Of a stretch of DNA of 64,000 nt, positions 1 to 26,326 are shown piece by piece. Each line of letters opens with the position of its first letter. Within the stretch, counting starts at the first letter, position 1. Origin of the DNA: a virus. The notes under the pieces are model-generated. The model was given only the letters and a program-made list of their open reading frames with translations. It was not told the origin of the DNA and made no database searches. Position numbers and translations under genes: made by a program. The DNA lies in the IMG/VR virus record IMGVR_UViG_3300020463_002275, positions 32,001 through 96,000 of that record. One strand, written 5' to 3'.

Positions 1-1
1 A

Positions 2-142
2 ACTGACATTGTTATAGCAGACCAATTGACTGGTGTTCACCGTAGAGACCATGGTGTTCCAGATAGCGTAGAAAGGGAATTGTTAAGAGCAACGTTTTGG
101 TATAAAACACAAGACAGAATTCACTATGACTATTCATTATAA
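2..142 (+). CDS. C-terminal fragment of a TauD/TfdA-like Fe(II)/2OG dioxygenase (5'-truncated by window edge; not in ORF track)
   Basis: Frame 2 is open from the window start to TAA at 140-142 and reads TDIVIADQLTGVHRRDHGVPDSVERELLRATFW. This matches the TauD C-terminal pattern D-x-x-I-x-D...H-R-R...R-x-L-x-R and the paralog at 6049-6843 (GDLFITESLFTQHRR...RLLYR). Confidence 0.6.
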   Translation, partial: TDIVIADQLTGVHRRDHGVPDSVERELLRATFWYKTQDRIHYDYSL

Positions 143-917
143 TAATATATTACATAACCAAAGCCTTGCAGTAAGAACAAATGTTTTACAGGAAGTTAAA
201 AAAGTTATAGAAAAAGTTGAACCAGACTTTGATAGTGTAGAAAAATATAAAACAAATATTATTGAATGGTTAAAACCTATAGTAGATTTGAAAGATTTTT
301 ATGTTTATCCGATGAATGGAATAACTGAAGGTTTGAATTGGTGGTATTATCAAGATAATCGTAGTGTCTATATGGACGAAGGAGACTATCAATGGATACA
401 CTCTCGAGGAAACATGTATGATAACTGTATTAAATATGTAAGTGTACCAAGTGCAATAAATGGAAATTTTACAAACATTCCTGAAAACACACCTACAGCA
501 GTTGACTTAGCATACGTTGGTAGTACTAAAGTAAAAAAAATAAACTTGCCAAAAAATGTTGAATATGTATTTTACAGTTTTTCTAAACCATTTGGTATTA
601 GAAATATTAGAACTGGTTGGATATTTACAAAACAAAAAGATTCTAAATTAGATGCATTAATACATAGTGCAAAGTATTATAACTATTTTGCAAATAGTGT
701 TAGCGAAGCAATAATCAAAAATTTTGATGTTGACTTTATATACAATTCGTTGTATAATAAACAAAAGACTATTTGTGAAGAATTAGATATTGTTCCTAGT
801 GATAGTGTTTGGCTTGCTACAAGCACTAGAGAAGAGTATCAAAAATTTAGACGTAGCGGAGATATAGCAAGACTCTGCCTAGCAGGAATATATAATGAAC
901 AAGAAACACTTACCTAG
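126..917 (+). CDS. Short PLP-dependent fold-type-I enzyme (aminotransferase/decarboxylase-like)
   Basis: G-I-T-E-G phosphate-binding segment, VDLAY (pyridine-binding Asp), SFSKPFG (Schiff-base Lys), IRTGW and C-terminal RLCL; paralogous to 7406-8269 and 12521-13444. Confidence 0.75.
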   Translation: MTIHYNNILHNQSLAVRTNVLQEVKKVIEKVEPDFDSVEKYKTNIIEWLKPIVDLKDFYVYPMNGITEGLNWWYYQDNRSVYMDEGDYQWIHSRGNMYDNCIKYVSVPSAINGNFTNIPENTPTAVDLAYVGSTKVKKINLPKNVEYVFYSFSKPFGIRNIRTGWIFTKQKDSKLDALIHSAKYYNYFANSVSEAIIKNFDVDFIYNSLYNKQKTICEELDIVPSDSVWLATSTREEYQKFRRSGDIARLCLAGIYNEQETLT

Positions 918-1506
918 TATACATAACTACAATTTAGATATTGACTTAAAACAATTACAAGATGCTTGTAATAAACTGGCAGAAAAGTTTGTTGATGTAA
1001 AAACAGCAAACCCAATGTTGTGTGATAATCATATGGAGTTAGTTGCTCATGTTTATGATAACTTTGAACAAATTAATTTAACTACACCTAGCGAAATATT
1101 ACCTTATACTACAAGTATTAAAGAAAGACTAAGACGAAAAGAAGAACATTTATATAACGTGCCTACAGAAGATTATACAGGCAGTTATTTTGAAAAAATA
1201 ATTACACAATTAAAAGCACCAGCAAGTAGAATTAGAATTACTAAACTTGCTCCAGGAAAAAATATTCCGTTTCATGTTGACTATGATGTGAGTTATGCTG
1301 TCAGATGTATTGTACCTATTTACGGAGACAAGCAAGTAATAAATTTATTTAAACGTGAAGGCAAACTAGAAGCATATAGTCTAGAGAACGGTAATGCTTA
1401 TTTCCTTAATATTGGATATCCACATGCCGTTGTTAACATGAGTAGCAAACCTCGTATTGCTCTTATGTTTAGTCTTAATGGTACAGAGGATATTCAACAT
1501 TTATGA
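895..1506 (+). CDS. Fe(II)/2OG dioxygenase, aspartyl/asparaginyl beta-hydroxylase-like
   Basis: RIRITKLAPG...FHVD (HxD), YPHAVVN (distal His), RIALMF (2OG-binding Arg). Confidence 0.8.
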   Translation: MNKKHLPSIHNYNLDIDLKQLQDACNKLAEKFVDVKTANPMLCDNHMELVAHVYDNFEQINLTTPSEILPYTTSIKERLRRKEEHLYNVPTEDYTGSYFEKIITQLKAPASRIRITKLAPGKNIPFHVDYDVSYAVRCIVPIYGDKQVINLFKREGKLEAYSLENGNAYFLNIGYPHAVVNMSSKPRIALMFSLNGTEDIQHL

Positions 1507-1964
1507 TTACATGGTACTTAGAACCAATACAATCTCATATAGATAAAATTAAAGAATTGTTTGCTAAAAACGTAGATCATAAATTAGCAAGTAATTATTT
1601 AGAAATGCCTCTTTTTGAACATACAAAATTTGCTAGAATGGGATACGATAATGATAAAATGATTTATTATAGTGCAGGTATGGAACGTCCTCAGTATAAT
1701 GGATCTGTTAGAATAATGAGTAGGCACACAAGAGATAGAGAATACGATTTTGGATCTAAGAGCGATGATTTAGCAAGAGGTTTAGAAACATTAGAACAAA
1801 GTGTAGCATATGCCCAGTCATTAGGTTACAAAGACATATGGCTTAGTAGAGAATTTAATCCAAAACTGTTTGAATACTTTGCAAAGCAAAGCAAATACGA
1901 TTGGACTGTAACACACGAATTAATGCATTATGGCGAATACCAATATATAATGAGACTACAATGA
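1503..1964 (+). CDS. Putative GNAT-fold acyltransferase-like protein
   Basis: 153 aa; the segment ARGLETLEQSVAYAQSLGYKDIWLS resembles the GNAT helix-strand end (A...G...i.L). ATGA overlaps with both neighbours. The fold call is weak. Confidence 0.4.
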   Translation: MITWYLEPIQSHIDKIKELFAKNVDHKLASNYLEMPLFEHTKFARMGYDNDKMIYYSAGMERPQYNGSVRIMSRHTRDREYDFGSKSDDLARGLETLEQSVAYAQSLGYKDIWLSREFNPKLFEYFAKQSKYDWTVTHELMHYGEYQYIMRLQ

Positions 1965-2692
1965 CTGTAACAACTTGTAAAACTTCATTTTTTTCTATTG
2001 ATGATATTGGTGTTATAGTTAAAACAAATAATCAAAGCATTAAAAAACAACCTTGCGTTTGGCTGATACACGGCAGTGGCGGAATCAGTAGTAATGAAGA
2101 TTTATGGATTGAACGTGCATTTGAATTAGGTCATACAGTTATTATTGTTGACAGTTATAGCAATAGAGGCATATACAAACAAAATTGGGAAAGTATGGAA
2201 GAATTTAGAATTGACCCAAAACAACGTGCTAAGGATCAAATAAAAGCATACGAATACCTTTTAAATAAACAAAACATTATACCTTTTGCAGATATAACTA
2301 ATAGTAAAGTAGTAGGGTTTTCAGACGGTGGTACAGCAGGAATATGGCTACAACAAAATGATTATCCTGACTATTGGAAGGAAAGTTATTGCTTATATCC
2401 AGGATTGAAGCCAACAGTATTACCCCGAGAAATATATCAAATACGTAGTAATAAGGTGCATATATTTGTAGGAGAATTAGATAATTGGACCCCGGCTTTT
2501 TATGATTTAGATTATCAAAAAGCAACTAATTGTAAACTTACTATATGGCCAGAAACACATCATAGTTTTAGTAAACCGGGTATAGGAACATGGCATGAAA
2601 ATACACTTAATTACAAAAGAGAACGTGGAGTTTACTGTAAATACAGTGCAGAAGCAACACAACAGACAATGGAAATAGTTTTTAATGGATAA
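1961..2692 (+). CDS. Dienelactone hydrolase-family alpha/beta hydrolase
   Basis: HGSGG oxyanion motif, GFSDGG nucleophile elbow (GxSxG), GELDNWTP (acid), HHSF (His). Start moved from 1901 to ATG 1961, which overlaps the upstream stop (ATGA). Confidence 0.75.
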   Translation: MTVTTCKTSFFSIDDIGVIVKTNNQSIKKQPCVWLIHGSGGISSNEDLWIERAFELGHTVIIVDSYSNRGIYKQNWESMEEFRIDPKQRAKDQIKAYEYLLNKQNIIPFADITNSKVVGFSDGGTAGIWLQQNDYPDYWKESYCLYPGLKPTVLPREIYQIRSNKVHIFVGELDNWTPAFYDLDYQKATNCKLTIWPETHHSFSKPGIGTWHENTLNYKRERGVYCKYSAEATQQTMEIVFNG

Positions 2693-3221
2693 TAAAGTTT
2701 GTTTTACATTTGAGTTTGAATATGATATGAAAGCATTAGCAGACATAGTGTATAATATTGACAAATGGGATAGTTATATTCCACCAAAGTGGGATGAAAC
2801 AAAATACACTATTAATAATTTTACTGGTGTAACATATAGGTATTATGAAGATTTACAAAACAAAGAACCTATAAAAACAATAAGAGAAAAATTAAATTTT
2901 CCATATTTGGATTATAAGACAACTCAACTACTAAAGTTTCCTCCGCATAATGGACCTACTATTCATAGAGATACGGAACGACATACTGCTATACTTTTTC
3001 CGATATATACTAATGAAGTATACGAACCTATAAAATTTTATCATGATGATACATCAGAATGGTTTGAAGTAGACTATCATGATAAGGTAATTGTATTTGA
3101 TGCAAAAGTGTTACATGCAGTTGCAAATAAAGAGTATAATAGATTTAGTTTACAGTTTGATTTTAAAGAAACGTATAAAGAAGTATATGAAAAATATTGT
3201 AACGGAGAATTTTTTGCTTAA
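2685..3221 (+). CDS. Fe(II)/2OG dioxygenase
   Basis: TIHRD (HxD), VLHAVAN (His), RFSLQF (Arg). Confidence 0.75.
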   Translation: MDNKVCFTFEFEYDMKALADIVYNIDKWDSYIPPKWDETKYTINNFTGVTYRYYEDLQNKEPIKTIREKLNFPYLDYKTTQLLKFPPHNGPTIHRDTERHTAILFPIYTNEVYEPIKFYHDDTSEWFEVDYHDKVIVFDAKVLHAVANKEYNRFSLQFDFKETYKEVYEKYCNGEFFA

Positions 3222-5397
3222 CGTTTTCGGAGTACAATTGAATGCACACTATACTGTGACACTTCCTGTTAGTTTAGGAACATTGTGGTCGTATCTTTAT
3301 ACAGTAAAAGATGTATACAAACATTTGAATCATACAGGCTGGGCAACTTATCATAAGCCTGAAACTAGTGTAATGGAACTGTTTCCAGAAGTTGATAAAA
3401 ACGGTGCACCTGATGTAGTGCTTGTTAGTTTATACATGTGGAATAGAAACAGATCCATAAAACTTACAAAAGCAATTAAAGAAAAATATCCTGATGTAAA
3501 AATTATTGTCGGAGGAAATGAAGTTCCTCAAGATCCTGAAAGATTTAAACAGTTTGTTGCTGATAATCCTCAGTTTGATTACTATGTTAACAGTGAAGGC
3601 GAAATGGCATTAGAAATGATGTTGCGAAAAATACTTGCTGAAAAAGGTATTTACAAGTCAAAATATTATGAAGATTGTTATCACCAAACAAAAAATGGCA
3701 AAATTATTAGTAAGCAAACAACTAGACGTTACTTAAATCATAAAGCAGAATTAGATTATCCTAGTGCATGTGCATTAGGACTATATGATGACTTAGTTGC
3801 AAAATTGCCTAAAGATATACAAATACAAGGTGTATTAGAAACTAATAGAGGATGTCCTTACACTTGTACATTCTGTGATTGGGGATTAGAAGAAAAACTA
3901 AGACGTTTTAGCATGAAGCGTATCAAGGACGAAATTGATTGGTATGTAGGCAACGTACACGAAATAATGTTTTCTGATGCTAACTTTGGCATTTTGCATA
4001 GAGATCTAGATATTGCAAAATATTTAATCAAGGCAAAATTACAACATCCTAATCCTAAATTACATACAACAGCAATTACGTATGCAAAAAATAACAAAGA
4101 AAGAGTTTTACGTATTGCAGAGATATTAGAGAAATTTGACTTTAGTAGAAGTGGTGCAACTTTTAGTTTGCAAAGTTTACATACTCCTACACTTGAAGCA
4201 ATCAAAAGAGATAACTTGAGTATTACAAAAGATTTTGAATGGATTGCACAAAACTTTATTAAAAAAGGCTTACCTTACTATCATGAAATGATTATGGGAA
4301 TGCCGTTAGAAACAAAAGAAAGTTTTCTAAACGGTATGAGTAAGTTGTTAAAATATAATCCATTAGAAATAAATGTATACAAATTAGCATGGTTGGAAAA
4401 CAGTGAAATAAGTTTAGAAAAACATGAAGATATTTACAAGTTAGAATGGGACGAGTTTGAACAAGGACCTAGTCCGTTTGAAGATGAAAAAGAATATGCA
4501 TATATCATTGGAAGTACGAGTACGATTACACGAAAAGATATGAGATATATTAGAGACATACGTGATTTGATACAAGTGTTATGGTTAGGAAGAACAATAT
4601 TCTATGTAGGAAGATATCTACAAAACGAATATGACATTGAAGCATGTGATATGATTGAAAAAATTGTTGACTGGTTTCAAACAAAAGGCGATAAAGAATT
4701 TTTTGATACATTGTTAGCAAGTAAAGAAGATGCAGTGCGTGATAAAAAAAGAGATGTACCTCTTTGGTTTCCTTACCAAAAAGATAAATTAAAATTCCAT
4801 AGGTATTCTAATGCTTGGTTATTTTTACACGGCACAAAAGAAAGAAAAAATCATTTCTATGAACAAATTACACAGTTTTTCTTAGACACTTACAAGCAAG
4901 TAGACAAAGACTTATTATTAGATCTTATACACTTCAATAAAAATATACTTATTGATGGAGAACAAACTGAATTCAATACAAACTTTACAACAAAGTATAG
5001 TTGGATTGATTATTTTACGAAAGGCCAACTTATGAAATCTAAGACAACATATGATGCTAAAATAGAAGTTGCTGGAAATACAAAAGTTTCTAAAGATGCT
5101 GTTGATCGAAATGTTTTCTTATATTATATTTCAGGCGGACATGAATTCATGTTTAACAAACAAAATGCATTTTATTATCCAGATGGAACATACACAAACG
5201 AACAAGGCATACATCATTACATAAGTAGAATAGGAATGTTTTATCCTAAAGATACTTACTTTGAAAGTGCTGAAGATATTATTGATAGTATATTAAACGA
5301 AGAAGATATTGATATTAAAGAATATATTACTAGTGCAAGACTTAAAATATCAAAAAATATTAACGAAGAATTAAATCCTTTTAAAGTTTCTGCTTAA
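3187..5397 (+). CDS. Cobalamin-binding-domain radical SAM enzyme (class B methyltransferase-like), about 736 aa
   Basis: N-terminal B12-binding Rossmann signature (PDVVLVSLYMWN...KYPDVKIIVGGNEV), ETNRGCPYTCTFCDW (CxxxCxxC), DANFG, GMPLET, long C-terminal extension. Start set to ATG 3187 (MKNIV) rather than 3091 to shorten the overlap. Confidence 0.85.
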   Translation: MKNIVTENFLLNVFGVQLNAHYTVTLPVSLGTLWSYLYTVKDVYKHLNHTGWATYHKPETSVMELFPEVDKNGAPDVVLVSLYMWNRNRSIKLTKAIKEKYPDVKIIVGGNEVPQDPERFKQFVADNPQFDYYVNSEGEMALEMMLRKILAEKGIYKSKYYEDCYHQTKNGKIISKQTTRRYLNHKAELDYPSACALGLYDDLVAKLPKDIQIQGVLETNRGCPYTCTFCDWGLEEKLRRFSMKRIKDEIDWYVGNVHEIMFSDANFGILHRDLDIAKYLIKAKLQHPNPKLHTTAITYAKNNKERVLRIAEILEKFDFSRSGATFSLQSLHTPTLEAIKRDNLSITKDFEWIAQNFIKKGLPYYHEMIMGMPLETKESFLNGMSKLLKYNPLEINVYKLAWLENSEISLEKHEDIYKLEWDEFEQGPSPFEDEKEYAYIIGSTSTITRKDMRYIRDIRDLIQVLWLGRTIFYVGRYLQNEYDIEACDMIEKIVDWFQTKGDKEFFDTLLASKEDAVRDKKRDVPLWFPYQKDKLKFHRYSNAWLFLHGTKERKNHFYEQITQFFLDTYKQVDKDLLLDLIHFNKNILIDGEQTEFNTNFTTKYSWIDYFTKGQLMKSKTTYDAKIEVAGNTKVSKDAVDRNVFLYYISGGHEFMFNKQNAFYYPDGTYTNEQGIHHYISRIGMFYPKDTYFESAEDIIDSILNEEDIDIKEYITSARLKISKNINEELNPFKVSA

Positions 5398-6061
5398 ACT
5401 CAGTTACACCTAAACCTATTTTATTTTCATTGTCAAATCTTGGATCATTCCATTCTTTTTTAATTTCTTTTGGAAACGGTAAACTAGTATATTCTAAACT
5501 TTCAATATTTTTATAATATTCTTTGTTAGGTTTCCAAGGAGACCCTATACAAACAGTTAATTTTATATCATTACCTGTATTAGTCATACCATGTGGGTGT
5601 GAGCCGTTTATAACATATGCATCAGTTTGTGGTTCGTAATAATGCTTATTGCTATTTCCATCAAAGAAATACAGTGTGCTTTCTTTTTTGCCTTTGACCA
5701 CCCATCTAAATTTATGTTGCATTCCGCCAACTTCTTCTGGCGCACTATCAACATGATCATTTAACATTTCGCCAGGCTTAGTTTTGATAACTGTGACATT
5801 TCCTACTCCACCAATATAAGGAAAAACGTAATCACGCAAAGCAACAACTGATGCTGATTCTTTTGGTAAATTAGGATTAAAACTGTATTGTTCAAACCAG
5901 CCAACGTCCGGCCTAGCATTATATAAACTACACATCCATGCACCATGAAATTTAATCCAGTACCAATCATTTTCTGGTAAAGATAATATTTCTTGTGCAA
6001 CTTGTTCTTTGTTAGGAATATCAAGATTTACAAGATCCATGTATGTAATTATTCTGTCCAT
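5381..6061 (-). CDS. Fe(II)/2OG dioxygenase (AspH-like)
   Basis: KTKPGEMLNDHVD (HxD), HPHGMTN (His). Confidence 0.7.
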   Translation of the reverse strand: MDRIITYMDLVNLDIPNKEQVAQEILSLPENDWYWIKFHGAWMCSLYNARPDVGWFEQYSFNPNLPKESASVVALRDYVFPYIGGVGNVTVIKTKPGEMLNDHVDSAPEEVGGMQHKFRWVVKGKKESTLYFFDGNSNKHYYEPQTDAYVINGSHPHGMTNTGNDIKLTVCIGSPWKPNKEYYKNIESLEYTSLPFPKEIKKEWNDPRFDNENKIGLGVTEFKQKL

Positions 6062-19924: not shown

Positions 19925-20480
19925 TTTGTTTTAACAATTCACTTAACAAATGTGCTTTAAGTAGCACCGCTTGGCTATAACTTTTGTGTGAGATATTTAA
20001 AAAATTATTGTCTACTTTAAACGAATCAGCATCTATAAGTTTTATTTGACCGTCTGATGTAAAAACGATATTTGATAAGTTAATGTCGTCATGGAAAAAA
20101 TATTGACCTTTAGGAAGATGTTTTTCACTAAACTCAAGACAATCAAAATATACACGGTTGTAAAATTTTACAATCTTAAGAGCATTTTCTAATGTAGACA
20201 TTTTGTGCAATCTGTCGTACTCATCTGCTTCATCTAGTACATCGTATCCATCACAAACAATATCAAGACGTTCCATTTTATAAATATCTCTTGTTTTCCA
20301 TTCAATCGGCTTTACAACATAACTGTGATCTTTTGAAAATAGTACATATAAGTTGTAATATTCCTCTTCCCATCCCCTTTGACCAACTTTTATTATTTTT
20401 GTAGCATTTTTCTCTTGAAGTTTTATCGTAGCATTGTTTCTTTTAATTATTTTTGCGTTATAAAAATTTTTATCCATCAT
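19911..20480 (-). CDS. Protein-kinase-like (PKL) fold small-molecule/protein kinase
   Basis: Catalytic-loop-like HDDINLSNIV and Mg-binding-like KLIDAD; N-terminal IIKVG lysine. Confidence 0.6.
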   Translation of the reverse strand: MMDKNFYNAKIIKRNNATIKLQEKNATKIIKVGQRGWEEEYYNLYVLFSKDHSYVVKPIEWKTRDIYKMERLDIVCDGYDVLDEADEYDRLHKMSTLENALKIVKFYNRVYFDCLEFSEKHLPKGQYFFHDDINLSNIVFTSDGQIKLIDADSFKVDNNFLNISHKSYSQAVLLKAHLLSELLKQNENV

Positions 20481-20694
20481 ATACCAACTTTACTTCTTTA
20501 CCAGGACCTACACGACTTGGTAAATCTCCATACTGTTCAATATACCATTCAATAACAGCCACATACCAATTTTGACTGTTGTGATGTGCTTGCTTGTTGA
20601 ACTTATAAATGTTATTATTAGTTGCTTCCATACAACTCAAGGCTCTAGCACTTTCAGTTTGTAATTGTCTAAGTGTTAATTTATTTGCGTCCAA
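20470..20694 (-). CDS. Hypothetical protein, 74 aa
   Basis: Co-oriented ORF that fills the gap and overlaps both neighbours; TTG start. Confidence 0.6.
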   Translation of the reverse strand: MDANKLTLRQLQTESARALSCMEATNNNIYKFNKQAHHNSQNWYVAVIEWYIEQYGDLPSRVGPGKEVKLVYDG

Positions 20695-23600
20695 TTTTCA
20701 TATACCTTGTGTATTGCCCTAAGTCAAGTTCTCCTTCATATAAAACTGTTTGCATAGGCGCACTTGCACTAAACTCTTGTAAACTGCTAGAGCAATTAAC
20801 ATGTTCTTCAATGCTAAAATAGTTATTACTTTGTAATATGATTAATCTTCCTTCGGGCAATAAATCATACCATTTAGAAAAATTATCAATATGCTCACAA
20901 CTTGTATTAATAATAGTGTGTGGCATTTCCGTCAACGGAGCAGTTGTTCCGTCAAGTCTTTCAGTTGTATAACTATGTTCAACGTAATCTATATCCATTA
21001 TATCTTGTGTTGTTGCTTTAAATTTCCATGTATCACTTACCAAGTCTGCATTGAATATTTCTGCTATTTTCCATGCTTTAGAATCTAAATCAAAACTTCT
21101 AATTTTCTCAAAATCTATTTTGTGTTCCTGTAACATCGGAACAACACTACTATACCAACCAGCACATAAAAATACTGTTCCTAAATCAGGACAAACTTTT
21201 TTTACTTCTTCCACTAACCACTTTTTACTTTTTAACTGACCTCTGCTCATTACGTCTTTATCATATTTAATATTTTGCTTATCAAGTACTTCTAATGGTT
21301 TAACATATAAACTACCTGTATATTTTTCTAATACACGCCATAATGCATGCCTATTATTATCCATAGTAAGATTGACTTCGTCAGTAACACTAGGTTCTAA
21401 TCTTTTAATACTCCAAATATTTTTAAATAGTCCTGCTTTCTTTATATCTTCTACTAATGTATCTTTGCCTTCGATTAATCTAAACAAACTCATTTCATTT
21501 GATTCGACTAATGCTTTTCTTAAATCTTCTGTGGTATCACTATTGTCTATAAGTCTAAACAAACTATGAACATTTTTTTCTGTAACTGCTTTACGTAAAT
21601 CTTCGTATTCATCTCCTAGTAATCTAAAAAGGCTATGTATGTTTTTTTCTGTAACTGCTTTACGTAAATCTTCATGATTGTCTCCAAGCAATCTAAATAG
21701 ACTATGAAGATTTTCTTCAACTACAGTCTTTCGTAGATCTTCATGTTCATCGCCAACTAGCCTAAACAAACTGTGTACATTATCTTCAGTAATTGCTTTA
21801 CGTAACTCTTCATGATCTTTACCTAATAATCTAAACAAACTATGCACATTTTTTTCAATATACATTTTTCTTATATCTTCAATACCTTCAATACCTTTAT
21901 CTTCTAGATATCTAAATAAACTATGGTAATTTCTTTCTTCTACAAATTTACGTAAATCTTCATTTCCGGTTATACGAAGAATGTCTAACATATGTCCATC
22001 ATTATAAAATCTTCTTAGATTAGTTACTTTATCACCGTACAGTATTTCAAATCTATCTAGCAAATCTACAATAAAATTATCTCTAGGCGGTAATGGGTCG
22101 TCTTCTTTAAAAGGTATTGTTTGTTTCCATTCAGTATCTGCTTGTATTTCTGTAAGTTCTATTTTAACAGGTTGTGTGTTAGATGTAGTTTCTTTATCAT
22201 TATACATCTGTTGCCATTCTTCTGTTGTATCTGTAGTTTCAGTAAACTGTTCATACAACCAATTGAAGTCATTTATTAACCTAAGATCAGACCCACTAGA
22301 AAGGCCAAACTCCATACCAGCGGTAGCACCTGCCAAAGCAAACTCCCCAAATGGTCTATCGCGTCCCACGGTTGTCCAAGTTTTAAGTCTTTCATTTGTT
22401 TCGTCCTCCTTTTGTCTATCAATTACTTTACTGCTTAGTTTTGCACATTCTCTAAATGCACTACGCCAAGTACTAAACTCGCTTGAATTAAATGCAGTTA
22501 TGCAAGATATTTTTTCCATTTTTTTAAATCTATCACTAATACTTGTAGTCATATCAGGACGACTAGTATCCATATCACGAGTCATTTGTGTTGGAAATAA
22601 TTTTACACCGCCATATCCGTATACTAAATCATTTATAGGATTTTGACTACGCCATACGTGTACTGCTCTGTTATCTTCAGCAATATAATCAAAGTTAAAA
22701 TCATCTGCAATTACAGCATCACCATCTACAATCCAAAACATTTCAGTCGAACAAACGTTTGCCGCGGCAATATGTGCTTGATGTATTCCTTTTACTCCAT
22801 GTATACGTTGGGCTCTTGGAAAACGTGTTTTTAACTTATTAAAGTTTTCGTCGGCGTTTGCTTCGTCATAAGATATCATTACAATATCATATTCAGTTTT
22901 TTTAGTAGGAACAAAGTTAGACGAAAAAGTGTTAAATTGCGTTGTATTTGTACGTATATAAGGATGTTCAGGTCTTGGTGGGTTGCGGTATGTATTTTTA
23001 AAAAACTTGCTCTGTTGAGCATCTAAGGGCGTTACAGCAATAGGTAATTCTATATCTGCAAGTATACGTTCACCGTAATCTTCAATTGCTTCTAGTAAGT
23101 CACTTTCGTCTTGCACTTTATTTTTCCAAAGATCATTTAAGTATTCAAAGTCGCGTACATTAATATACTCCCAATCAGTACACATTGTTTTGTGCAATCC
23201 TTCTCTGGCTCCATAAATTGCCCATAATCCGTTAGTTACATCTGCGCCTGCCATACACCAGACATATAGTCTTTCCAAATTTTTCCAATGATTTCCTATG
23301 AGTTCTTTTTTTGCAGGTTTGATACCTTCAATTAAACACATTTTTACACCTTCTCGGAAACCGGCACGCCATGCTTGGTGTGGTGTAGCATTATTATGAA
23401 CAGTACTCATTAAACTATTAATTTGTATGTACTCAAGGTCCCAACAAAAATCAATACCTGCCGCTATATTATCAGGATCTGCATTTTCGTGTGTTTTCAT
23501 TTTTAGGACAGTTTCTCTATCCCAACACTTTATACCACCATTTCCGTAACGCAGTCCGTTAATAATATTATCAGCAGTCCAACTAACAACGTGTCTAGTA

Positions 23601-23857
23601 AGATCAACACCTTCTTGAAAGTTAATCACTTCGTTCAAGAATTGTTCATCTATTTGATTATCACCATCGATGGTAATAAATCTTTTTGTTTTGGCTATTT
23701 CTGCACAGGCTTTGTGAGCGGCATCTGATCCTTCTACACCGTGTATACGTTTAGCCCACGGAACTTTAGTTAATAAGTTCGTGTAATTTTCTTCTGCATT
23801 TGGCTCGTCATATGACAAATATATGATATCATAATCTAAAACTTTAAATTGCTTCAT
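20681..23857 (-). CDS. Multidomain protein: two tandem GT-A glycosyltransferase-like domains + helical repeats + class I SAM-methyltransferase-like domain
   Basis: Duplicated unit D(I)x(L/I)SYDE...IHGV(E/K)G...AH...(I/V)DGD...YG(N/Y)GG(I/V)K...WR(A/S)(G/A)FRE..K; 23-aa repeats; C-terminal VFLCAGWY...RSFDLD...QDI...INTSCEH. Confidence 0.7.
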   Translation of the reverse strand: MKQFKVLDYDIIYLSYDEPNAEENYTNLLTKVPWAKRIHGVEGSDAAHKACAEIAKTKRFITIDGDNQIDEQFLNEVINFQEGVDLTRHVVSWTADNIINGLRYGNGGIKCWDRETVLKMKTHENADPDNIAAGIDFCWDLEYIQINSLMSTVHNNATPHQAWRAGFREGVKMCLIEGIKPAKKELIGNHWKNLERLYVWCMAGADVTNGLWAIYGAREGLHKTMCTDWEYINVRDFEYLNDLWKNKVQDESDLLEAIEDYGERILADIELPIAVTPLDAQQSKFFKNTYRNPPRPEHPYIRTNTTQFNTFSSNFVPTKKTEYDIVMISYDEANADENFNKLKTRFPRAQRIHGVKGIHQAHIAAANVCSTEMFWIVDGDAVIADDFNFDYIAEDNRAVHVWRSQNPINDLVYGYGGVKLFPTQMTRDMDTSRPDMTTSISDRFKKMEKISCITAFNSSEFSTWRSAFRECAKLSSKVIDRQKEDETNERLKTWTTVGRDRPFGEFALAGATAGMEFGLSSGSDLRLINDFNWLYEQFTETTDTTEEWQQMYNDKETTSNTQPVKIELTEIQADTEWKQTIPFKEDDPLPPRDNFIVDLLDRFEILYGDKVTNLRRFYNDGHMLDILRITGNEDLRKFVEERNYHSLFRYLEDKGIEGIEDIRKMYIEKNVHSLFRLLGKDHEELRKAITEDNVHSLFRLVGDEHEDLRKTVVEENLHSLFRLLGDNHEDLRKAVTEKNIHSLFRLLGDEYEDLRKAVTEKNVHSLFRLIDNSDTTEDLRKALVESNEMSLFRLIEGKDTLVEDIKKAGLFKNIWSIKRLEPSVTDEVNLTMDNNRHALWRVLEKYTGSLYVKPLEVLDKQNIKYDKDVMSRGQLKSKKWLVEEVKKVCPDLGTVFLCAGWYSSVVPMLQEHKIDFEKIRSFDLDSKAWKIAEIFNADLVSDTWKFKATTQDIMDIDYVEHSYTTERLDGTTAPLTEMPHTIINTSCEHIDNFSKWYDLLPEGRLIILQSNNYFSIEEHVNCSSSLQEFSASAPMQTVLYEGELDLGQYTRYMKIGRK
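21330..21965 (-). repeat. In-frame ~69-bp (23-aa) tandem repeat, about 7 clear and 2 degenerate copies
   Basis: TACGTAAAT recurs at 21592 and 21661 (69 nt apart); protein consensus EDLRKAVTEKNVHSLFRLLGDE. Confidence 0.9.
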
Positions 23858-24371
23858 CTACATATCCATAAGTGTTAAATATCTTTGGTGTGTATATACT
23901 TACATCACCTTCTTCGTCATCATATTCGAACTGAACTGTATGTCCGTTTGCTATTTGTTCTACTGTAGCGTCAAATGTTCTAATTAATAAATGCGGATCA
24001 TTTGCTTTTGTAATACTAAACTTGCACACTTGATTAGGATTTAACAAAAGGTTTTCTTTTACGTTTACAAACAATTTCCAATTACGCCATTTTATATTTC
24101 TTGTGATTATACAATCTGCATTGTCTTGTTTAGGAATATGATAAATTACATCTTTTATATCATAACTAAATTTTGGCTGTTCGTATTCTAATAATGTATA
24201 TTCTTTTTTTGCCAAATCAAACTTTACAACATAATTTTGTTTTTTGTCTGGGTTTTCCATAAAGTCAACATATAAGTCTTCGTCTACTTCTAAAGCATAT
24301 TCATGATCAGGAGTATAGTTTTGTAAACCTGTTACTTTACTTGTATCTTTATCAAATATTAACCAGTACAT
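23844..24371 (-). CDS. Hypothetical protein, 175 aa
   Basis: Co-oriented ORF overlapping both neighbours; no motif recognised. Confidence 0.7.
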   Translation of the reverse strand: MYWLIFDKDTSKVTGLQNYTPDHEYALEVDEDLYVDFMENPDKKQNYVVKFDLAKKEYTLLEYEQPKFSYDIKDVIYHIPKQDNADCIITRNIKWRNWKLFVNVKENLLLNPNQVCKFSITKANDPHLLIRTFDATVEQIANGHTVQFEYDDEEGDVSIYTPKIFNTYGYVDEAI

Positions 24372-25165
24372 TGTTCATACCTTGCTAAAATTTTATTACA
24401 AAAATCTTTTTCTGTATAATGAAATACTCCGTGTTGTCGGTGGTTGCCAATTTTCAAACCATCATTAAAATACCAATCAACTTTTTGTTGCCAATGCTCA
24501 CTGGTATCTACCCAATTTTGAGCATGTAATTTCATATGTACAAAATCTATTATGTCTACGTCTTGAAAATTATCATATTCCATAAGTTCTAATACTATGG
24601 CCGCACAAACATCAATACTACAATGTTTAGGTTTATGATTTTTACAGAATATTTCATAAAAATCTTCCCAATTTTCTATTACAGTTTCTAGTAGTGCAAA
24701 AAAGTTTGCAACACGTTTTGTTTTTTTAAAGTAATACAATCCTGTATACACATTTATTAGGTAATTTTGTGAAAAGACTTTTCTGTAATAGGTATCATTA
24801 ATAGGTTCTTGTCTATATGTAATAGGATTTTGTGTAAAATATAGTTCTTGATCTTTAAACTTAGACCAATTAATTTTTTCTAAAAACAAAACATCGCTGT
24901 CAACAACTATTGTTTCGTCATATGGCGAAAGGTTAAAGGCTTTCCATCTGTTTTCTATTTTCCATTCACTACTTTTTGCTTGATCATGTTTTAACACAAT
25001 AACTTTGTCGAATACAAAAGCAGTTTTTTGGTCAACTTCTTTGTCTGTTACTAAAGTAAAATGCATATTATTATTTTTCATACCGCTCATTGCACATAGG
25101 TATGCTTGTTTTACATAATCATCTGTAGAATTATTTTGTGCAAATATCAAAACACCTTGTTTCAT
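24359..25165 (-). CDS. Nucleotide-diphospho-sugar transferase-like (GT-A) protein
   Basis: GVLIFAQN...DYVKQA...LVTD...FDKVI...LSPYDETIVVDSD (DxD). Confidence 0.6.
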   Translation of the reverse strand: MKQGVLIFAQNNSTDDYVKQAYLCAMSGMKNNNMHFTLVTDKEVDQKTAFVFDKVIVLKHDQAKSSEWKIENRWKAFNLSPYDETIVVDSDVLFLEKINWSKFKDQELYFTQNPITYRQEPINDTYYRKVFSQNYLINVYTGLYYFKKTKRVANFFALLETVIENWEDFYEIFCKNHKPKHCSIDVCAAIVLELMEYDNFQDVDIIDFVHMKLHAQNWVDTSEHWQQKVDWYFNDGLKIGNHRQHGVFHYTEKDFCNKILARYEQCTG

Positions 25166-25950
25166 AGTATTTCCTCTAGACTGTACTTGTTCATAGCATG
25201 TACTGTAAGTCCTTTTGTAGCAATCGGATTATCATCAATAAAAAACATAAGTTTATCTTCATTTATTTCGTGTGTAATATCTTTATCAATAGTATAAAAA
25301 AGTTTTCCTGGCATAGGATTAACAAAATTACCTTTAGAATGATTGTTCATTATATGAGCACCAATACTAAAAGCAAAATCGTTTCTATATGTTTGCTGTA
25401 CTATTTGATATAACATTCTATAGTGGCGCCATTGCTCTTCAATATGCTGTAATAAATCAAAAAATATTTTGTTTTGTTTACATTTTACAAAATACACACA
25501 AGTTGCCCAATAAAAGTCTACACTTGAATCGCTTATTTTATCAAATTGACGATAATCTAAATTTTGTCCCAGATGATATGCATCTTTATACATTAGTAAA
25601 GGATGTGTTTGCTTAAAGCAATTTTTATAAACGTCATCACATATGATTATGTCACTATCTATCATAAGTGTCTGATCATATGGAGACAATTCATAACTTA
25701 AAACCCTTGCATTATTTTTAAATGTTAAATGTTTGCCACTATTACCATTGTTATATAATTTGCTTGTATATCTTTGTGGTGTTTTGAAATCAATTACTTT
25801 ATCAAAAACATTATCTGGAACTTTACAGTCAGTAATTACACTTGTTGGTAAATTAAGATACTTCTTTGCACGTTCTGCAACCATACATGCTTGCTTGACG
25901 TAATCTATTTCTTCATTATTAAATGCATGTACTAGTATACCTTTAGACAT
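25162..25950 (-). CDS. Nucleotide-diphospho-sugar transferase-like (GT-A) protein, paralog of 24359-25165
   Basis: GILVHAFN...DYVKQA...VITD...FDKVI...LSPYDQTLMIDSD. Start set at ATG 25950, which overlaps the upstream gene end. Confidence 0.6.
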   Translation of the reverse strand: MSKGILVHAFNNEEIDYVKQACMVAERAKKYLNLPTSVITDCKVPDNVFDKVIDFKTPQRYTSKLYNNGNSGKHLTFKNNARVLSYELSPYDQTLMIDSDIIICDDVYKNCFKQTHPLLMYKDAYHLGQNLDYRQFDKISDSSVDFYWATCVYFVKCKQNKIFFDLLQHIEEQWRHYRMLYQIVQQTYRNDFAFSIGAHIMNNHSKGNFVNPMPGKLFYTIDKDITHEINEDKLMFFIDDNPIATKGLTVHAMNKYSLEEIL

Positions 25951-26278
25951 TAAGGATTCCTTGTACAGTTCTTTCACTATCAACTATTTTTTGATATTCA
26001 GAATGATAACTTTCTGAGGCTTTTGTAAATGCTGTGACTAATTCGTTATAAAATGCTTCTTTATTTTTAATTTTAATAGGAGTGTTATTATTGTCTACAA
26101 AAATATCACTTTTTAGTGCTAGTATACTTGCAATAAATTCTCTAGTGGCAGTAAATTGCCCGCCTTCATAATAGACAGTGCATTCTTTTGTATACTTTTC
26201 TTGTAATATGCGTTTTTGGTTTTTAAATGTTGTAACGTAATCTGCATGTTCTAATGCTTTTTTAAGACGTTGATCCAT
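25943..26278 (-). CDS. Hypothetical protein, 111 aa; first gene after the sigma70 promoter
   Basis: RBS GGAG at 26287-26284; clean ORF. Confidence 0.75.
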   Translation of the reverse strand: MDQRLKKALEHADYVTTFKNQKRILQEKYTKECTVYYEGGQFTATREFIASILALKSDIFVDNNNTPIKIKNKEAFYNELVTAFTKASESYHSEYQKIVDSERTVQGILNV

Positions 26279-26297
26279 AATTTCTCCATATAGCAGT

Positions 26298-26326
26298 ATT
26301 ATATGACAGATCGACTAAAAAGTCAA
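26298..26326 (-). promoter_or_regulatory. Near-consensus sigma70 promoter heading the GT/radical-SAM operon
   Basis: Minus strand: TTGACT (26326-26321), 17 nt, TATAAT (26303-26298), then GGAG RBS and ATG 26278. Confidence 0.85.

Follow-up and report, generated by a model that had tools for sequence, protein, structure and literature searches.

Island of radical SAM enzymes and glycosyltransferases in the tail-fibre region of a large marine phage: an example of a widespread, uncharacterised enzyme system

Introduction

In a large uncultured marine phage (contig of 182 kb), ~30 enzymes of iron-dependent and sugar-handling types make up a 28-kb block within the tail-fibre region, with fibre genes on either side. 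We analysed a window of 64,000 nucleotides of this contig (positions 32,001 to 96,000 of IMG/VR record IMGVR_UViG_3300020463_002275). Within the window, the island encodes eight intact radical SAM (rSAM) enzymes, 7–8 Fe/2OG-type oxygenases, three aminotransferase-like paralogues, two PP-loop ATPases, a nitroreductase, a hydrolase, a kinase-like protein, four GT-A domains and a class I methyltransferase domain.

Results and Discussion

Extent and layout of the island

The island extends 1.9 kb beyond the left window edge, up to an Mtd_N fibre-like gene, and ends on the right at a promoter gap at 26326. The first-pass annotation had described a tailoring-enzyme island next to the tail module, and its coordinates and gene content hold, with domain evidence of varying strength. 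The tight joining of genes and the leftward continuation that it reported are borne out as well, abutting or overlapping genes being near-universal; the sole sizeable gap is occupied by the gene encoding sp74 (see below). The borders and unassigned genes are as follows.

Left of window: Mtd_N fibre-like gene, left island border (Pfam Mtd_N, E 1.3e-11)
Left of window: fatty-acid-desaturase-like membrane protein (Pfam FA_desaturase, E 5.7e-9)
Just outside window, left of the TauD gene: 174-aa HxD...H protein (motif)
1..142, plus: 3' end of a TauD-family Fe/2OG dioxygenase gene (window -835..142; Pfam TauD, E 4.6e-18)
1503..1964, plus: 153-aa protein, no Pfam or NCBIfam family
10021..10049, minus: perfect sigma-70-type promoter, TTGACA-17-TATAAT, in the 75-nt gap before rSAM_A2
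23844..24371, minus: 175-aa conserved viral protein (phrog_15770, unknown function, E 5e-5), relatives syntenic
25943..26278, minus: 111-aa conserved viral protein opening the long minus-strand operon, syntenic in relatives
26298..26326, minus: sigma-70-type promoter-like site, TTGACT-17-TATAAT (11/12), in a 51-nt gap at the right island end
26330..28238, minus: two paralogous Ser/Thr/Asn/Gly-rich viral proteins (315 and 302 aa, 46% mutual identity)
28249..33607, minus: three paralogous tail-fibre genes (493, 606 and 674 aa; PHROG tail-fibre families, shared N-termini), the right-hand context

The 153-aa protein had been called GNAT-like, an assignment that found no family to sustain it. Family searches including PHROG gave the 111-aa protein no match to a family of known function. 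The Ser/Thr/Asn/Gly-rich pair, which separates the island from the tail fibres, has no Pfam or PHROG family and no enzyme features, its ESM Atlas matches are viral clusters only, and it may be structural. The perfect promoter at 10049 is one of seven such sites across the 182-kb contig. The promoters at 10049 and 26326 had been overlooked by the first-pass annotation, as had sp74, the core/shell structure and the published fibre regions rich in rSAM genes.

Radical SAM enzymes

Eight ORFs in the window match PF04055 (Pfam), and a six-frame genome search found no other match in the 182-kb contig. The CX3CX2C motif and extra Cys clusters are retained in 8/8, in agreement with the count of eight made earlier.

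3100..5397, plus: B12-binding rSAM (class B; PF02310 and PF04055), accessory and clade-specific
8905..10014, minus: rSAM_A2, core gene, opens cassette 2 (PF04055, E 1.6e-14)
10655..11839, minus: rSAM_C, Cys-rich C-terminal domain (PF04055, E 1.2e-9; 16 Cys)
14133..15029, minus: rSAM_A3, opens cassette 3 (PF04055, E 2.9e-10; rSAM_A2 paralogue, E 3e-21)
15029..16372, minus: NTwi1, N-twitch rSAM (NF033640, 351.9 bits; cut-off 170)
16369..17781, minus: NTwi2, N-twitch rSAM, core gene (NF033640, 420.3 bits)
17781..18824, minus: rSAM_D1, SPASM-like C-terminus (PF04055, E 5.7e-8; rSAM_D2 paralogue, E 3e-44)
18836..19924, minus: rSAM_D2, core gene (PF04055, E 2.7e-6)

The score of rSAM_D2 straddles the PF04055 cut-off of 29.5, with 28.1 bits in one search and 30.0 bits in the six-frame genome search. 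The family closest to the B12-binding enzyme is the KedN5 sugar C-methyltransferase (NF033712), at an E-value of 1e-56 and a score of 192 bits where the cut-off is 700; the enzyme's near relatives occur in just two IMG/VR contigs.

Cassettes, oxygenases and accessory enzymes

A cassette consisting of an rSAM enzyme, a PP-loop ATPase, an aminotransferase-like protein and an Fe/2OG oxygenase is present in two copies, designated cassettes 2 and 3.

126..917, plus: PLP1, aminotransferase-like paralogue 1 (TAVDLAY and YSFSK motifs; paralogous to 7406-8299 and 12521-13444)
895..1506, plus: AspH1, Asp/Asn beta-hydroxylase-type Fe/2OG oxygenase (Asp_Arg_Hydrox, PF05118, E 2.9e-6, over cut-off)
1961..2692, plus: dienelactone-hydrolase-type alpha/beta hydrolase (PF01738, E 2e-5)
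2685..3221, plus: 178-aa Fe/2OG-like protein, HRD...H (motif only, no Pfam match)
5381..6061, minus: 226-aa Fe/2OG-like protein, HVD...H (motif only)
6049..6843, minus: TauD2, TauD-family Fe/2OG dioxygenase (PF02668, E 1.6e-14)
6840..7403, minus: AspH2, Asp/Asn beta-hydroxylase-type oxygenase, closes cassette 2 (PF05118, E 5.6e-13)
7406..8299, minus: PLP2, aminotransferase-like paralogue 2, cassette 2 (VLLDCAY and SLSK motifs; start from the gene call on an identical contig)
8262..8903, minus: PP-loop ATPase 2, cassette 2 (PF06508, 21.9 bits, cut-off 22; PF01171; SGGADS, C-x16-C-x2-C-x2-C)
10090..10680, plus: nitroreductase-family flavoprotein, divergent from rSAM_A2 (PF00881, E 1.1e-5)
11823..12521, minus: 232-aa Fe/2OG-like protein, HTD...H, closes cassette 3 (motif only)
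12521..13444, minus: PLP3, aminotransferase-like paralogue 3, cassette 3 (VHIDGAW and SLSK; weak Pfam fold-type I PLP matches)
13441..14136, minus: PP-loop ATPase 3, cassette 3 (paralogue of 8262-8903)
19911..20480, minus: 189-aa protein-kinase-fold-like protein, accessory (HDDINLSN...IDAD)

Seven Fe/2OG enzymes had been proposed. Four calls are backed by Pfam (two TauD, two Asp_Arg_Hydrox), and three in the window, with one just outside, were made from the HxD...H motif alone. The triads are mostly intact, the exception being the left-edge TauD gene, which has no obvious triad. The 232-aa HTD...H protein co-travels with rSAM_A3/PLP3 in related loci.

The three proteins earlier named PLP enzymes are true paralogues (30% identity and E 3e-33 for PLP2 with PLP3) with the D-x-A-Y and S-x-S-K motifs of class I aminotransferases, and their Pfam matches are weak. 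PLP3 has homologues in Bdellovibrionota clusters (E 7e-53). The two supposed QueC-like proteins are indeed paralogous PP-loop ATPases in which SGGxDS and four C-terminal Cys are invariant (alignment A1). PP-loop ATPase 2 is QueC-like in outline only, and the homologues of PP-loop ATPase 3 are exclusively of viral or metagenomic origin.

The nitroreductase and hydrolase assignments stand, both matches exceeding their Pfam cut-offs. The nitroreductase, which recurs next to rSAM_A2 in further phage loci, would supply electrons to the rSAM enzymes. The kinase-like call draws on the HDDxxxxN...DAD motif and on matches to the catalytic loops of Kdo kinase and CcrZ at E 0.016; few relatives have this protein.

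Glycosyltransferase and methyltransferase domains, and sp74

20470..20694, minus: sp74, 74-aa near-invariant protein with zero Cys (gene call also present on an identical contig)
20681..23857, minus: 1058-aa core fusion of GT-A, GT-A, helical repeats and class I SAM methyltransferase
24359..25165, minus: GT8-like GT-A glycosyltransferase (family profile A6 matches glycogenin-1, E 6e-8; D89 and D91 invariant)
25162..25950, minus: GT8-like GT-A glycosyltransferase, paralogue of the preceding gene (same profile A6 match)

Residues 1–300 of the 1058-aa protein adopt a GT-A fold in an AlphaFold2 model (pLDDT 85.8). Its top Foldseek matches are all GT-A enzymes (RmlT, SunS/ThuS, WrtF, TarP and PBCV-1 A64R), with modest support (E-values of 3e-4, low TM-scores of ~0.33). 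Residues 320–538 form a second GT-A domain, an internal repeat of the first. Conservation of the DGD motif is complete or almost complete. The translation then shows some nine helical repeats of 24 aa (residues ~600–830), and a class I methyltransferase fold follows at residues 840–1058 (pLDDT 88.4; Foldseek E 2.5e-8). The methyltransferase-like domain recognised earlier is confirmed by this fold; of the four GT-A-like domains, two are backed by fold and internal repeat and two by the glycogenin (GT8) profile.

The TTG start of sp74 overlaps the stop of the 1058-aa gene. It occurs in 105 phage loci. In alignment, sp74 has 32 invariant positions and a mean column identity of 76%; one natural in-frame fusion joins it to rSAM_D2. 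It is a candidate partner or substrate.

A conserved core and a variable shell

The island has a small conserved core, and its bulk is a variable accessory shell. The core, present in most related IMG/VR loci, comprises the 1058-aa fusion, sp74, rSAM_D2, NTwi2 and rSAM_A2, usually accompanied by the nitroreductase-type flavoprotein. Of the 41 viral loci that were spanned in full, 38 contain rSAM_D2 (orthologues of at least 55% identity), 37 contain sp74 and 30 contain rSAM_A2 (75–95% identity), and the order is fixed in 27; rSAM_C has relatives in 25. NTwi2 and sp74 are the best-conserved genes of the island, NTwi2 recurring at 83–100% identity in >200 IMG/VR stretches. Variable arrays of rSAM paralogues, 5–14 per 21 kb, separate the core genes. 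The shell of this phage comprises five more rSAMs (one B12-dependent), the two cassette copies, additional oxygenases, the two GT8-like transferases, the kinase-like protein and the hydrolase.

The core set is spread over hundreds of other phages and predatory Bdellovibrio-type bacteria. Bdellovibrionota carry it without sp74, in clusters that adjoin rpoD and dnaG and are therefore chromosomal. In these clusters, separate genes encode the GT-A and the methyltransferase domains and adjoin orthologues of NTwi2 (55–61% identity), rSAM_D2 (40–45%) and rSAM_A2 (55–66%); relatives of rSAM_C are also found. The flanks hold four GT2 glycosyltransferases, an O-carbamoyltransferase, an amine-oxidase/UGM-like flavoprotein, and PP-loop, AspH-like and aminotransferase-like genes. 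Core co-conservation in the viral loci and recurrence in Bdellovibrionota support the coherent multi-step tailoring pathway postulated previously, which, as was also stated, maps onto no characterised one. A check for catalytically dead genes found the rSAM CX3CX2C, PP-loop, aminotransferase Lys, GT-A DxD and most HxD...H motifs intact.

Earlier reports describe phages whose fibre region is rich in rSAM genes (PMC5332604, PMC7029224), including pelagimyophages with glycosyltransferases and rSAM cassettes within a hypervariable fibre region (PMC7029224); this literature notes only the abundance of rSAM genes. We conclude that large marine T4-like/jumbo myophages carry, in their tail-fibre ("host recognition") region, a widespread enzyme system that is uncharacterised, and that the island is one instance of it.

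Possible products

Three candidate products had been named, and glycan or sugar decoration is favoured here: we give roughly even odds that the system builds and edits such a decoration. Domain identities, intact catalytic motifs, core-versus-shell architecture and co-occurrence in phages and Bdellovibrionota form the observed basis, from which we infer a sugar substrate, a reaction order and an acceptor. The GT-A domains would put sugars onto an acceptor, and the rSAM enzymes and their helpers would then modify the attached sugars at unactivated positions. Plausibly, an rSAM enzyme oxidises a hydroxyl, an aminotransferase-like enzyme aminates, and the PP-loop enzyme provides a route to amidation or thiolation; hydroxylation, then C- and O/N-methylation, could follow. 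The product would be a strain-specific glycan, either on virion fibres or on the surface of the infected cell.

Several lines speak for this product. The island encodes GT-A domains, GT8-like transferases and a methyltransferase domain, and GT2 glycosyltransferases and a carbamoyltransferase lie next to the bacterial clusters. An O-carbamoyltransferase and a GT9-like gene also occur on the same phage contig, amid other fibre genes. The B12-rSAM is closest to a sugar C-methylase family, and distant N-twitch relatives occupy a deoxysugar sub-cluster. In Poseidonocella, the latter (~28% identity) lie among FdtA, an NDP-hexose 2,3-dehydratase, an EryCIII-type transferase and two B12-rSAMs; in Paenibacillus, an N-twitch homologue adjoins a GT2. 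That these contexts come from homologues at just 26–28% identity counts against the glycan reading. Activated-sugar synthesis genes (nucleotidyltransferase, 4,6-dehydratase, DegT-type aminotransferase) were found neither in the island nor in the 10-kb flanks of its relatives, and there was no sign of a flippase, polymerase or exporter. We know of no characterised glycan pathway with 8–14 rSAM enzymes.

Further points count against a glycan. SPASM/twitch rSAMs act on peptides more often than on sugars, the aminotransferase-like proteins have class I (amino-acid type) rather than sugar-aminotransferase motifs, sp74 is without an obvious role in a pure glycan pathway, and the Foldseek scores of the GT-A domain are modest. 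Protein maturation, with sp74 or a fibre as the target, is a rival explanation. A (Cys-His-x-Ser) tail protein is not present. A small metabolite is a further rival product. Hypermodification of DNA or tRNA, for which the enzyme classes had suggested an analogy, is a weak alternative: the lack of a DpdA/TGT scaffold noted for the window extends to the entire contig, and the "QueC-like" proteins form a separate viral/metagenomic PP-loop family.

Genome setting of the island

The IMG/VR record is a linear contig of 181,934 bp, estimated by CheckV to be ∼51% complete; the window covers its bases 32001-96000. In the ORF listing, the island is a gap-free block of genes, consisting of a plus-strand arm that extends from 1.9 kb left of the window to 5397 and a minus-strand arm between 26278 and 5381. 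To its right, PHROG matches identify three tail-fibre paralogues, a baseplate of the T4 type and a tail-lysozyme hub. The landmarks of this region are:

2 kb left of the window, Mtd_N fibre-like gene, left border of the island
26326, 51-nt gap with a sigma-70-like site, right border of the island
34240-49125, minus strand, giant single ORF of 4961 residues, between the fibre operon and the baseplate wedge gene

We take the giant ORF to be, probably, a giant baseplate-associated protein of the VrlC type described in pelagimyophages and cyanomyophages. The baseplate wedge protein shares ∼37% identity with its counterparts in jumbo myophages such as SCTP-2, Atu_ph07 and the Rak2/PA5oct groups, and the baseplate of the present contig is closest to that of jumbo phages. 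A 601-residue O-carbamoyltransferase and a GT9-like gene are found outside the window among other large fibre genes (contig 143142-145477, about 111100-113500 in window numbering). No tRNA gene was detected in the 96 kb of the contig that were scanned.

This arrangement resembles the host recognition cluster (HRC) described for pelagimyophages and cyanomyophages by Zaragoza-Solas et al. (2020, PMC7029224), a hypervariable block of the structural region that adjoins a giant baseplate-associated protein and fibres and carries glycosyltransferases and “radical SAM cassettes”, in that the 4961-residue ORF, the baseplate and the fibres are located directly right of the island. It differs in that the pelagimyophage markers ribosomal protein S21 and CsgG, as well as psbA, occur nowhere in the contig. 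A T4-like marine viral genome with 12 radical SAM (rSAM) genes has also been described (Nishimura et al. 2017, PMC5332604). These two reports only list the genes; the definition of a core, the link to Bdellovibrionota, a conserved 74-residue protein (sp74) and a proposed mechanism are absent from both. We conclude that the system is an uncharacterised variant of the phage-encoded clusters that tailor surfaces or virions, with an unusual enzyme content, and that it is real and widespread.

A conserved core within a variable shell

A search of IMG/VR with NTwi2, one of the two N-twitch rSAM enzymes of the island, identified 201 related stretches, the best 80 of the 201 being 83-100% identical, and a search with the 1058-residue multidomain protein identified 69 loci. 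Gene counts were taken from 41 loci spanning 10 kb on either side of NTwi2. Their backbone consists of fibres, the 302/315-residue proteins, a 111-residue protein, two GT8-like proteins, a 175-residue protein, the 1058-residue protein, sp74 and the rSAM enzymes rSAM_D2, NTwi2 and rSAM_A2. Among the 41 loci, rSAM_D2 is present in 38, sp74 in 37 and rSAM_A2 in 30, and the order is shared in 27. The backbone genes are separated by variable runs of divergent rSAM paralogues (20-45% identity), such that 21 kb hold 5-14 rSAM-like genes (median 9); certain loci contain 11-14 consecutive rSAM genes. The cassette composed of the rSAM enzyme rSAM_A3, a PP-loop protein, the aminotransferase-like PLP3 and a 2OG oxygenase moves as one unit in a minority of loci, and close relatives of the B12-rSAM arm were found in two other contigs only. 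The first-pass annotation had treated the entire 26 kb as a single multi-step pathway. This is supported for the core, whose genes are co-conserved and do not assort independently, whereas much of the 26 kb is an accessory shell.

The position of the island within the fibre region is fixed across hundreds of phages, and its sequence recurs near-unchanged in marine metagenomes of at least seven studies from 2014-2025. Phages with this core are common at sea, and devote 10-15% of a large genome to iron-sulfur radical enzymes, exactly at the site that decides host recognition. In a marine metagenome of 2014, a related strain carries a 25-nt insertion and small indels at 9995 and 10296-10299, within and next to the promoter gap that separates rSAM_A2 from the nitroreductase gene.

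No DNA match to the island was obtained among cultured phages (megablast, 20 kb). A tblastn search of cultured phages with NTwi2 and the PP-loop protein returned only relatives of 20-24% identity, in Ralstonia phage RsoM2USA and two Vibrio phages. In RsoM2USA, a cultured jumbo phage (MG752970.1), the 24%-identical PP-loop and N-twitch rSAM homologues are located at separate sites (90160-90726 and 217354-218529). This phage is a possible experimental handle.

Counterparts in Bdellovibrionota

Prokaryotic genomes, one per species, were scanned with a six-sequence N-twitch alignment, an 18-sequence alignment being too diverse. The matches fall almost exclusively in Bdellovibrionota. The four others are contigs filed in genome bins (Arcticimaribacter, Neisseriaceae, Gammaproteobacteria MED685 and Chloroflexota NAT137), which carry the phage version of the island with an NTwi2 identity of 53-85% and, in two of the four, sp74; these are probably phage contigs misplaced in bins. 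The N-twitch family is present in 26 of 121 sampled Bdellovibrionota genomes, compared to none of 14 control genomes, and single Bdellovibrionota genomes contain 15-24 matches.

The Bdellovibrionota clusters group orthologues of NTwi2 (55-61% identity), rSAM_D2 (40-45%) and rSAM_A2 (55-66%) with separate genes for both GT-A domains and the methyltransferase domain of the 1058-residue protein (33-45%). They also hold extra N-twitch enzymes, paralogues of rSAM_C (a further island rSAM) and rSAM_D, and aminotransferase-like and PP-loop genes. Four GT2 glycosyltransferases, an O-carbamoyltransferase and an amine-oxidase/UGM-like flavoprotein are found nearby, as are rpoD and dnaG in several genomes; based on these neighbours, the clusters are chromosomal. 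The core is thus greatly expanded in these predators, which, like phages, attack other bacteria and do so with fibre-like adhesins. More distant N-twitch homologues (26-28% identity) occur in a Poseidonocella cluster with FdtA, an NDP-hexose 2,3-dehydratase, an EryCIII-type transferase, two B12-rSAMs and a polyketide synthase, and another in a lipid-type cluster of Paenibacillus with a GT2 enzyme.

Radical SAM enzymes and their partners

Pfam and NCBIfam searches recovered all eight rSAM enzymes proposed in the first-pass annotation, one of them B12-binding. Eight ORFs match PF04055 with E-values from 1.6e-14 to 4.5e-6, six of the eight exceeding the cut-off in the protein scan and all eight in the six-frame genome search; no further rSAM gene is present elsewhere in the contig. 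The CX3CX2C motif is kept in every one of the eight. The B12-binding enzyme belongs to class B (PF02310, E = 6.4e-9; PF04055, E = 4.8e-9; both above cut-off). KedN5 (NF033712) is its nearest family, of which it is not a member, with a score of 192.5 bits (E = 1e-56) against a curated cut-off of 700 bits.

Two of the enzymes are members of the N_Twi_rSAM family NF033640, with scores of 351.9 bits (15029-16372) and 420.3 bits (16369-17781) for a curated cut-off of 170, and the remaining six are non-members that score under 45 bits. The auxiliary cysteines of the N-twitch enzymes (Cys12, Cys30, Cys93 and Cys96) are invariant across 18 paralogues and precede Cys149, Cys153 and Cys156; residues 12-97 match the SPASM domain PF13186. 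NF033640 is a catalogued family for which we found no tested function. The family name gives no substrate, whereas here its members are part of a fixed phage cassette with GT-A and methyltransferase genes and a 74-residue protein. The seven rSAMs other than the B12-rSAM match no solved or named enzyme: single-sequence searches of solved structures with rSAM_A2 and rSAM_D2 gave no match, and the N-twitch profile reached only generic rSAM cores, such as those of SkfB and viperin. NCBIfam matches to HxsB/HxsC-type models are weak (E = 1e-4 to 1e-6), with scores far below the cut-offs.

The partner enzymes proposed from the sequence fared unevenly. The nitroreductase and the hydrolase, of the dienelactone hydrolase type, have Pfam matches over the cut-offs. 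The three PLP genes are paralogous by BLASTP, and all three retain the Asp of the D-x-A-Y/W motif and the Schiff-base Lys of the S-x-S-K motif; Pfam matches of these aminotransferase-like proteins are weak (E = 1e-3 to 5e-3) and below cut-off. Two TauD and two Asp/Asn-hydroxylase-type enzymes of the Fe/2OG set are recognised by Pfam, and four others by the HxD...H motif only. The kinase-like assignment has motif support plus very weak matches, and the GNAT-like one could not be confirmed. BLASTP also groups the two PP-loop ATPases and three pairs of rSAMs as paralogues, and a cassette of rSAM, PP-loop, aminotransferase-like and 2OG genes is present in two copies with identical gene order, one from 8905-10014 down to 6840 and the other from 14133-15029 down to 11823.

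The PP-loop proteins had been described as QueC-like. The SGGxDS motif and a four-Cys site are indeed present, while QueC family membership did not hold: the protein encoded at 8262-8903 scores 21.9 bits with PF06508 (gathering score 22), in a match confined to its C-terminal end, and that at 13441-14142 gives no match to this model. Ser23, Gly24, Gly25, Asp27 and Ser28, as well as Cys199, Cys216, Cys219 and Cys222 with the spacing C-x16-C-x2-C-x2-C, are invariant in 27 sequences. The family profile reaches no QueC structure at E ≤0.1; the closest PDB entry is a tRNA thiolase, matched in its PP-loop region. The family is purely viral or metagenomic, and some of its members carry a prior PF06508 annotation.

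Glycosyltransferase and methyltransferase domains

Residues 1-300 and 840-1058 of the 1058-residue protein were folded with AlphaFold2, using alignments that included the bacterial homologues. Both domain assignments of the first-pass annotation were borne out by these models. The model of residues 1-300 (pLDDT 85.8) matches GT-A glycosyltransferases only in Foldseek, where at least the top 30 matches are all GT-A (probability 0.84-1.0, mostly ≥0.97; E-values from 3e-4), with low TM-scores of ∼0.33. These matches include the peptide S-glycosyltransferases SunS/ThuS and A64R of PBCV-1. The DxD motif is DGD, with Asp64 present in at least 90%, and Gly65 and Asp66 in all, of 14 phage and Bdellovibrionota sequences. 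Residues 320-538 are a repeat of this first GT-A domain. The model of residues 840-1058 (pLDDT 88.4) has a class I methyltransferase fold, with >500 Foldseek matches at E <1e-3 that are all methyltransferases (best E = 2.5e-8). Its SAM-binding GxGxG motif is degenerate (L-x-G-W-x-G), and Asp84 and Asp86 are invariant.

The methyltransferase domain matches no Pfam methyltransferase family, and profiles of the GT-A and methyltransferase domains found nothing among solved structures. The whole 1058-residue protein matches only designed armadillo repeats, weakly and in its repeat region; this linker between the GT-A and methyltransferase domains (residues ∼600-830) consists of about nine tandem 24-residue helical repeats of the HSLFRLLGD-HEDLRKAV type. 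In the ESM Atlas, the 1058-residue and 315-residue proteins reach unnamed viral clusters only, with weak methyltransferase and GT2 leads that score <0.8. The family profile of the two GT8-like paralogues (24359-25950) matches glycogenin-1 over the N-terminal 100 residues only (E = 6e-8), and Asp89 and Asp91 are invariant. One of 22 family members matches PF01501 at E = 0.0045, and none at the cut-off.

Sugars as the likely working material

Sugars are most likely the working material of the island; we estimate the probability of this reading at about one half. Several lines of evidence point to them: the four GT-A domains, the methyltransferase, the glycan-type neighbours in bacteria, the KedN5-like B12-rSAM, the deoxysugar context of the distant relatives, and the carbamoyltransferase and GT9-like gene among the fibre genes elsewhere in the contig. 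Two observations weaken it. Sugar-activation, flippase and export genes were found neither in the island nor in its relatives, and the aminotransferase-like proteins carry amino-acid-type motifs.

In this reading, the transferases would attach sugars to an acceptor, on which the radical enzymes would then edit unactivated positions. Pairs of rSAM and aminotransferase could convert a hydroxyl to an amine in the manner of BtrN/BtrS, and the PP-loop enzymes may act on an activated carbonyl, by amidation or thiolation. Hydroxylation would fall to the oxygenases, and methylation to the B12-rSAM together with the methyltransferase domain. Beside rSAM_A2, the conserved flavoprotein of the nitroreductase type may feed electrons to the Fe-S clusters.

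Natural-product pathways for sugars and aminocyclitols use rSAM enzymes such as BtrN (with BtrS), the B12-dependent C-methylases of the GenK/KedN5 type, and DesII. The island is similar to these pathways in the predicted coupling of an rSAM, acting at an unactivated carbon, to an aminotransferase, and in the predicted methylation of sugars by a B12-rSAM; we know of no such sugar pathway that uses 8-14 rSAMs. Virion glycosylation of the PBCV-1 A64R type is likewise a possible parallel, as GT-A transferases are encoded beside structural genes in both cases. To our knowledge, the virion-glycosylation systems described so far contain no rSAM arrays. The product could reveal new radical chemistry on sugars or proteins. 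A new layer of surface recognition, between phage and host and between predator and prey, is also possible, and so is, in the ocean, a considerable viral need for iron, sulfur, SAM and cobalamin.

The 74-residue protein and possible maturation of a polypeptide

The sp74 ORF fills the sole sizeable gap of the island (20480-20681), and gene calls on an identical contig include it. It starts at a TTG that overlaps the stop codon of the gene for the 1058-residue protein. It occurs in 105 phage loci, always just ahead of rSAM_D2, and in one metagenomic protein is fused in frame to this enzyme. Thirty-two positions are invariant in 24 sequences, and sp74 remains ∼75-80% identical even beside flanking enzymes at 55-65%. 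No family or structure match was obtained, apart from sub-threshold designed armadillo repeats with its N-terminal helix. Predictions of a complex between sp74 and rSAM_D2 scored 0.00, 0.59 and 0.00, with a mark of 0.32, and count neither way. Contigs from two RNA runs of one marine metatranscriptome study cover only 19271-20943, a region extending from the 5′ half of rSAM_D2 through the kinase-like gene and sp74 into the end of the gene for the 1058-residue protein; two DNA runs cover all 20 kb. The RNA contigs give a weak hint of high expression of this region; they may be DNA carry-over, provide no readable transcript level, and are uninformative on expression of the uncovered parts of the island.

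These properties bear on an alternative that we consider rather unlikely, in which the rSAMs, oxygenases and transferases mature a ribosomal product. The target would be sp74, possibly held by the helical repeats of the 1058-residue protein, or else a fibre protein or the Ser/Thr-rich 302/315-residue proteins, with the GT-A domains glycosylating the polypeptide. In favour of sp74, it ranks with the best-conserved genes of the island, its translation is coupled to that of the 1058-residue protein, and the RNA contigs include it, as does an in-frame fusion with rSAM_D2. The structural matches of the GT-A domain to SunS/ThuS and to a capsid-glycosylating enzyme are also consistent with maturation of a polypeptide. 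In addition, rSAMs with auxiliary clusters (SPASM/twitch) and AspH-type hydroxylases usually act on peptides. A precedent is the HXS antiphage system, in which two rSAMs, HxsB and HxsC, together with the small protein HxsD mature the protein effector HxsA (PMC13128918). The island is similar in encoding several rSAMs with a small conserved protein, and differs in that sp74 has no HxS motif. A substrate with a CHxS tail was rejected, as six-frame regex scans for HxS and Cys-His-x-Ser repeats found no (Cys-His-x-Ser)n tail protein in the contig and 230 related loci.

Other features fit maturation of a peptide less well. The only free small ORF of the island, sp74 is conserved and coupled to the enzymes, but has no Cys and no leader or core features. 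It is missing from the true Bdellovibrionota clusters, which still hold the core rSAM trio together with genes for the GT-A and methyltransferase domains. Neither an RRE/PqqD domain nor a leader protease or exporter turned up when all ORFs were scanned with Pfam, and an invariant substrate with 5-14 varying rSAMs would be unusual for RiPPs. Through sp74, a protein-centred reading stays alive, in which it would be either a substrate or scaffold, or a common partner of the rSAMs.

A specific version of the former, which we regard as unlikely, is that sp74 is a dedicated carrier or scaffold on which the GT-A domains would build a sugar for the variable rSAM array to rewrite, as a “glycan editing line”. 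If so, an invariant scaffold would be paired with a fast-evolving set of radical enzymes in a protein-templated system that yields glycopeptide or glycoprotein decorations specific to each strain, serving host recognition or masking; in Bdellovibrionota, the core chemistry would be the same but would take place on an unrelated scaffold.

Promoters and timing of expression

Sigma-70-type sites are located in short gaps at the operon starts:

10021-10049, minus strand, perfect TTGACA-17-TATAAT, in the 75-nt gap ahead of rSAM_A2
26298-26326, minus strand, 11/12 sigma-70-type site, in the gap ahead of the gene for the 111-residue protein
27305-27333, 11/12 sigma-70-type site, in the gap ahead of the gene for the 315-residue protein

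A further promoter site in the window is at 61990. Seven perfect TTGACA-17-TATAAT sites are present in the 182 kb, and each of those checked occupies a short gap in front of a gene. The T4 late box TATAAATA is underrepresented, with one occurrence in the window compared to 14 expected. CTAAATA boxes, likely a late signal, precede structural genes by 25-40 nt, among them the first gene of the fibre operon (34247); none is found between island genes. CTAAATA is also embedded within the spacer of two perfect sigma-70 sites.

Purely late expression of the island, co-transcribed with the fibres, was rejected in view of the depletion of TATAAATA, the absence of CTAAATA inside the island and the sigma-70-type sites at operon starts. 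Because of the latter two features, the island may be read early by the unmodified host polymerase, alongside late read-through. Transcription at this stage would be in keeping with a remodelling of the host surface or with decorations built in advance.

Less probable products

It is quite unlikely that the island makes a small diffusible or intracellular metabolite, such as an aminoglycoside-, nucleoside- or amino-sugar-like compound derived from a host metabolite during infection. The pairing of rSAM and aminotransferase recalls the BtrN/BtrS logic of 2-deoxystreptamine formation, and the kinase-like protein, hydrolase, B12-rSAM, TauD-type oxygenases and methyltransferase are all classes of natural-product tailoring enzymes. 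The polyketide and deoxysugar clusters that contain distant N-twitch homologues, and promoters that allow early expression, are also compatible with such a product. However, the Pfam scans recognised neither a scaffold-forming enzyme nor a resistance gene or exporter, the flanks of the bacterial clusters hold polymer-type GT2 enzymes rather than scaffold synthases, and in hundreds of phages the island is fixed inside the fibre region.

Hypermodification of phage DNA or tRNA, to which the first-pass annotation had drawn an analogy through the 7-deazaguanine (QueC/QueE/DpdA) and thymidine (kinase, aGPT-PPlase, PLP and rSAM) pathways, is highly improbable, as their hallmark, a base-exchange or DNA-transferase enzyme, was not found in the contig, the PP-loop family is separate from QueC, and the island is set in the fibre region rather than the replication module. 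Six enzyme classes are shared with these pathways (PP-loop, rSAM, PLP, flavoprotein, kinase-like and Fe/2OG), and the five other than PP-loop overlap with the thymidine pathways in particular. The PP-loop proteins are QueC-like in outline (SGGxDS and C-terminal four-Cys site), and the near-consensus sigma-70 promoters would fit early expression. On the other hand, DpdA/TGT (PF01702) has no match in the 182-kb contig at E ≤1, an absence that is provisional because the contig is only ∼51% of the genome. Pfam, PHROG and NCBIfam gave no match suggestive of a 5-hmdU DNA kinase or aGPT-PPlase, with models that are not specific to these enzymes. The lack of rSAM genes outside the island means that there is no separate QueE, and the bacterial counterparts sit with GT2 and carbamoyltransferase genes.

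A TGT fold was considered for a 429-residue ORF upstream (contig 10684-11973) and rejected, since it belongs to no Pfam family and PF01702 finds nothing in it. In the adjoining stretch (contig 12145-17844), the gene for a PsiE-family phosphate-starvation protein precedes consecutive genes for a phosphoribosyltransferase, a 2OG-Fe(II) oxygenase (PF13759) and a HIT hydrolase; this trio, 14-15 kb upstream, could be counted in favour of hypermodification. Also left of the window (contig 24067-26613), an AAA+ ATPase is followed by a DUF2201 metallopeptidase/VWA protein. Such CobS/CobT-like pairs are common in marine myophages.
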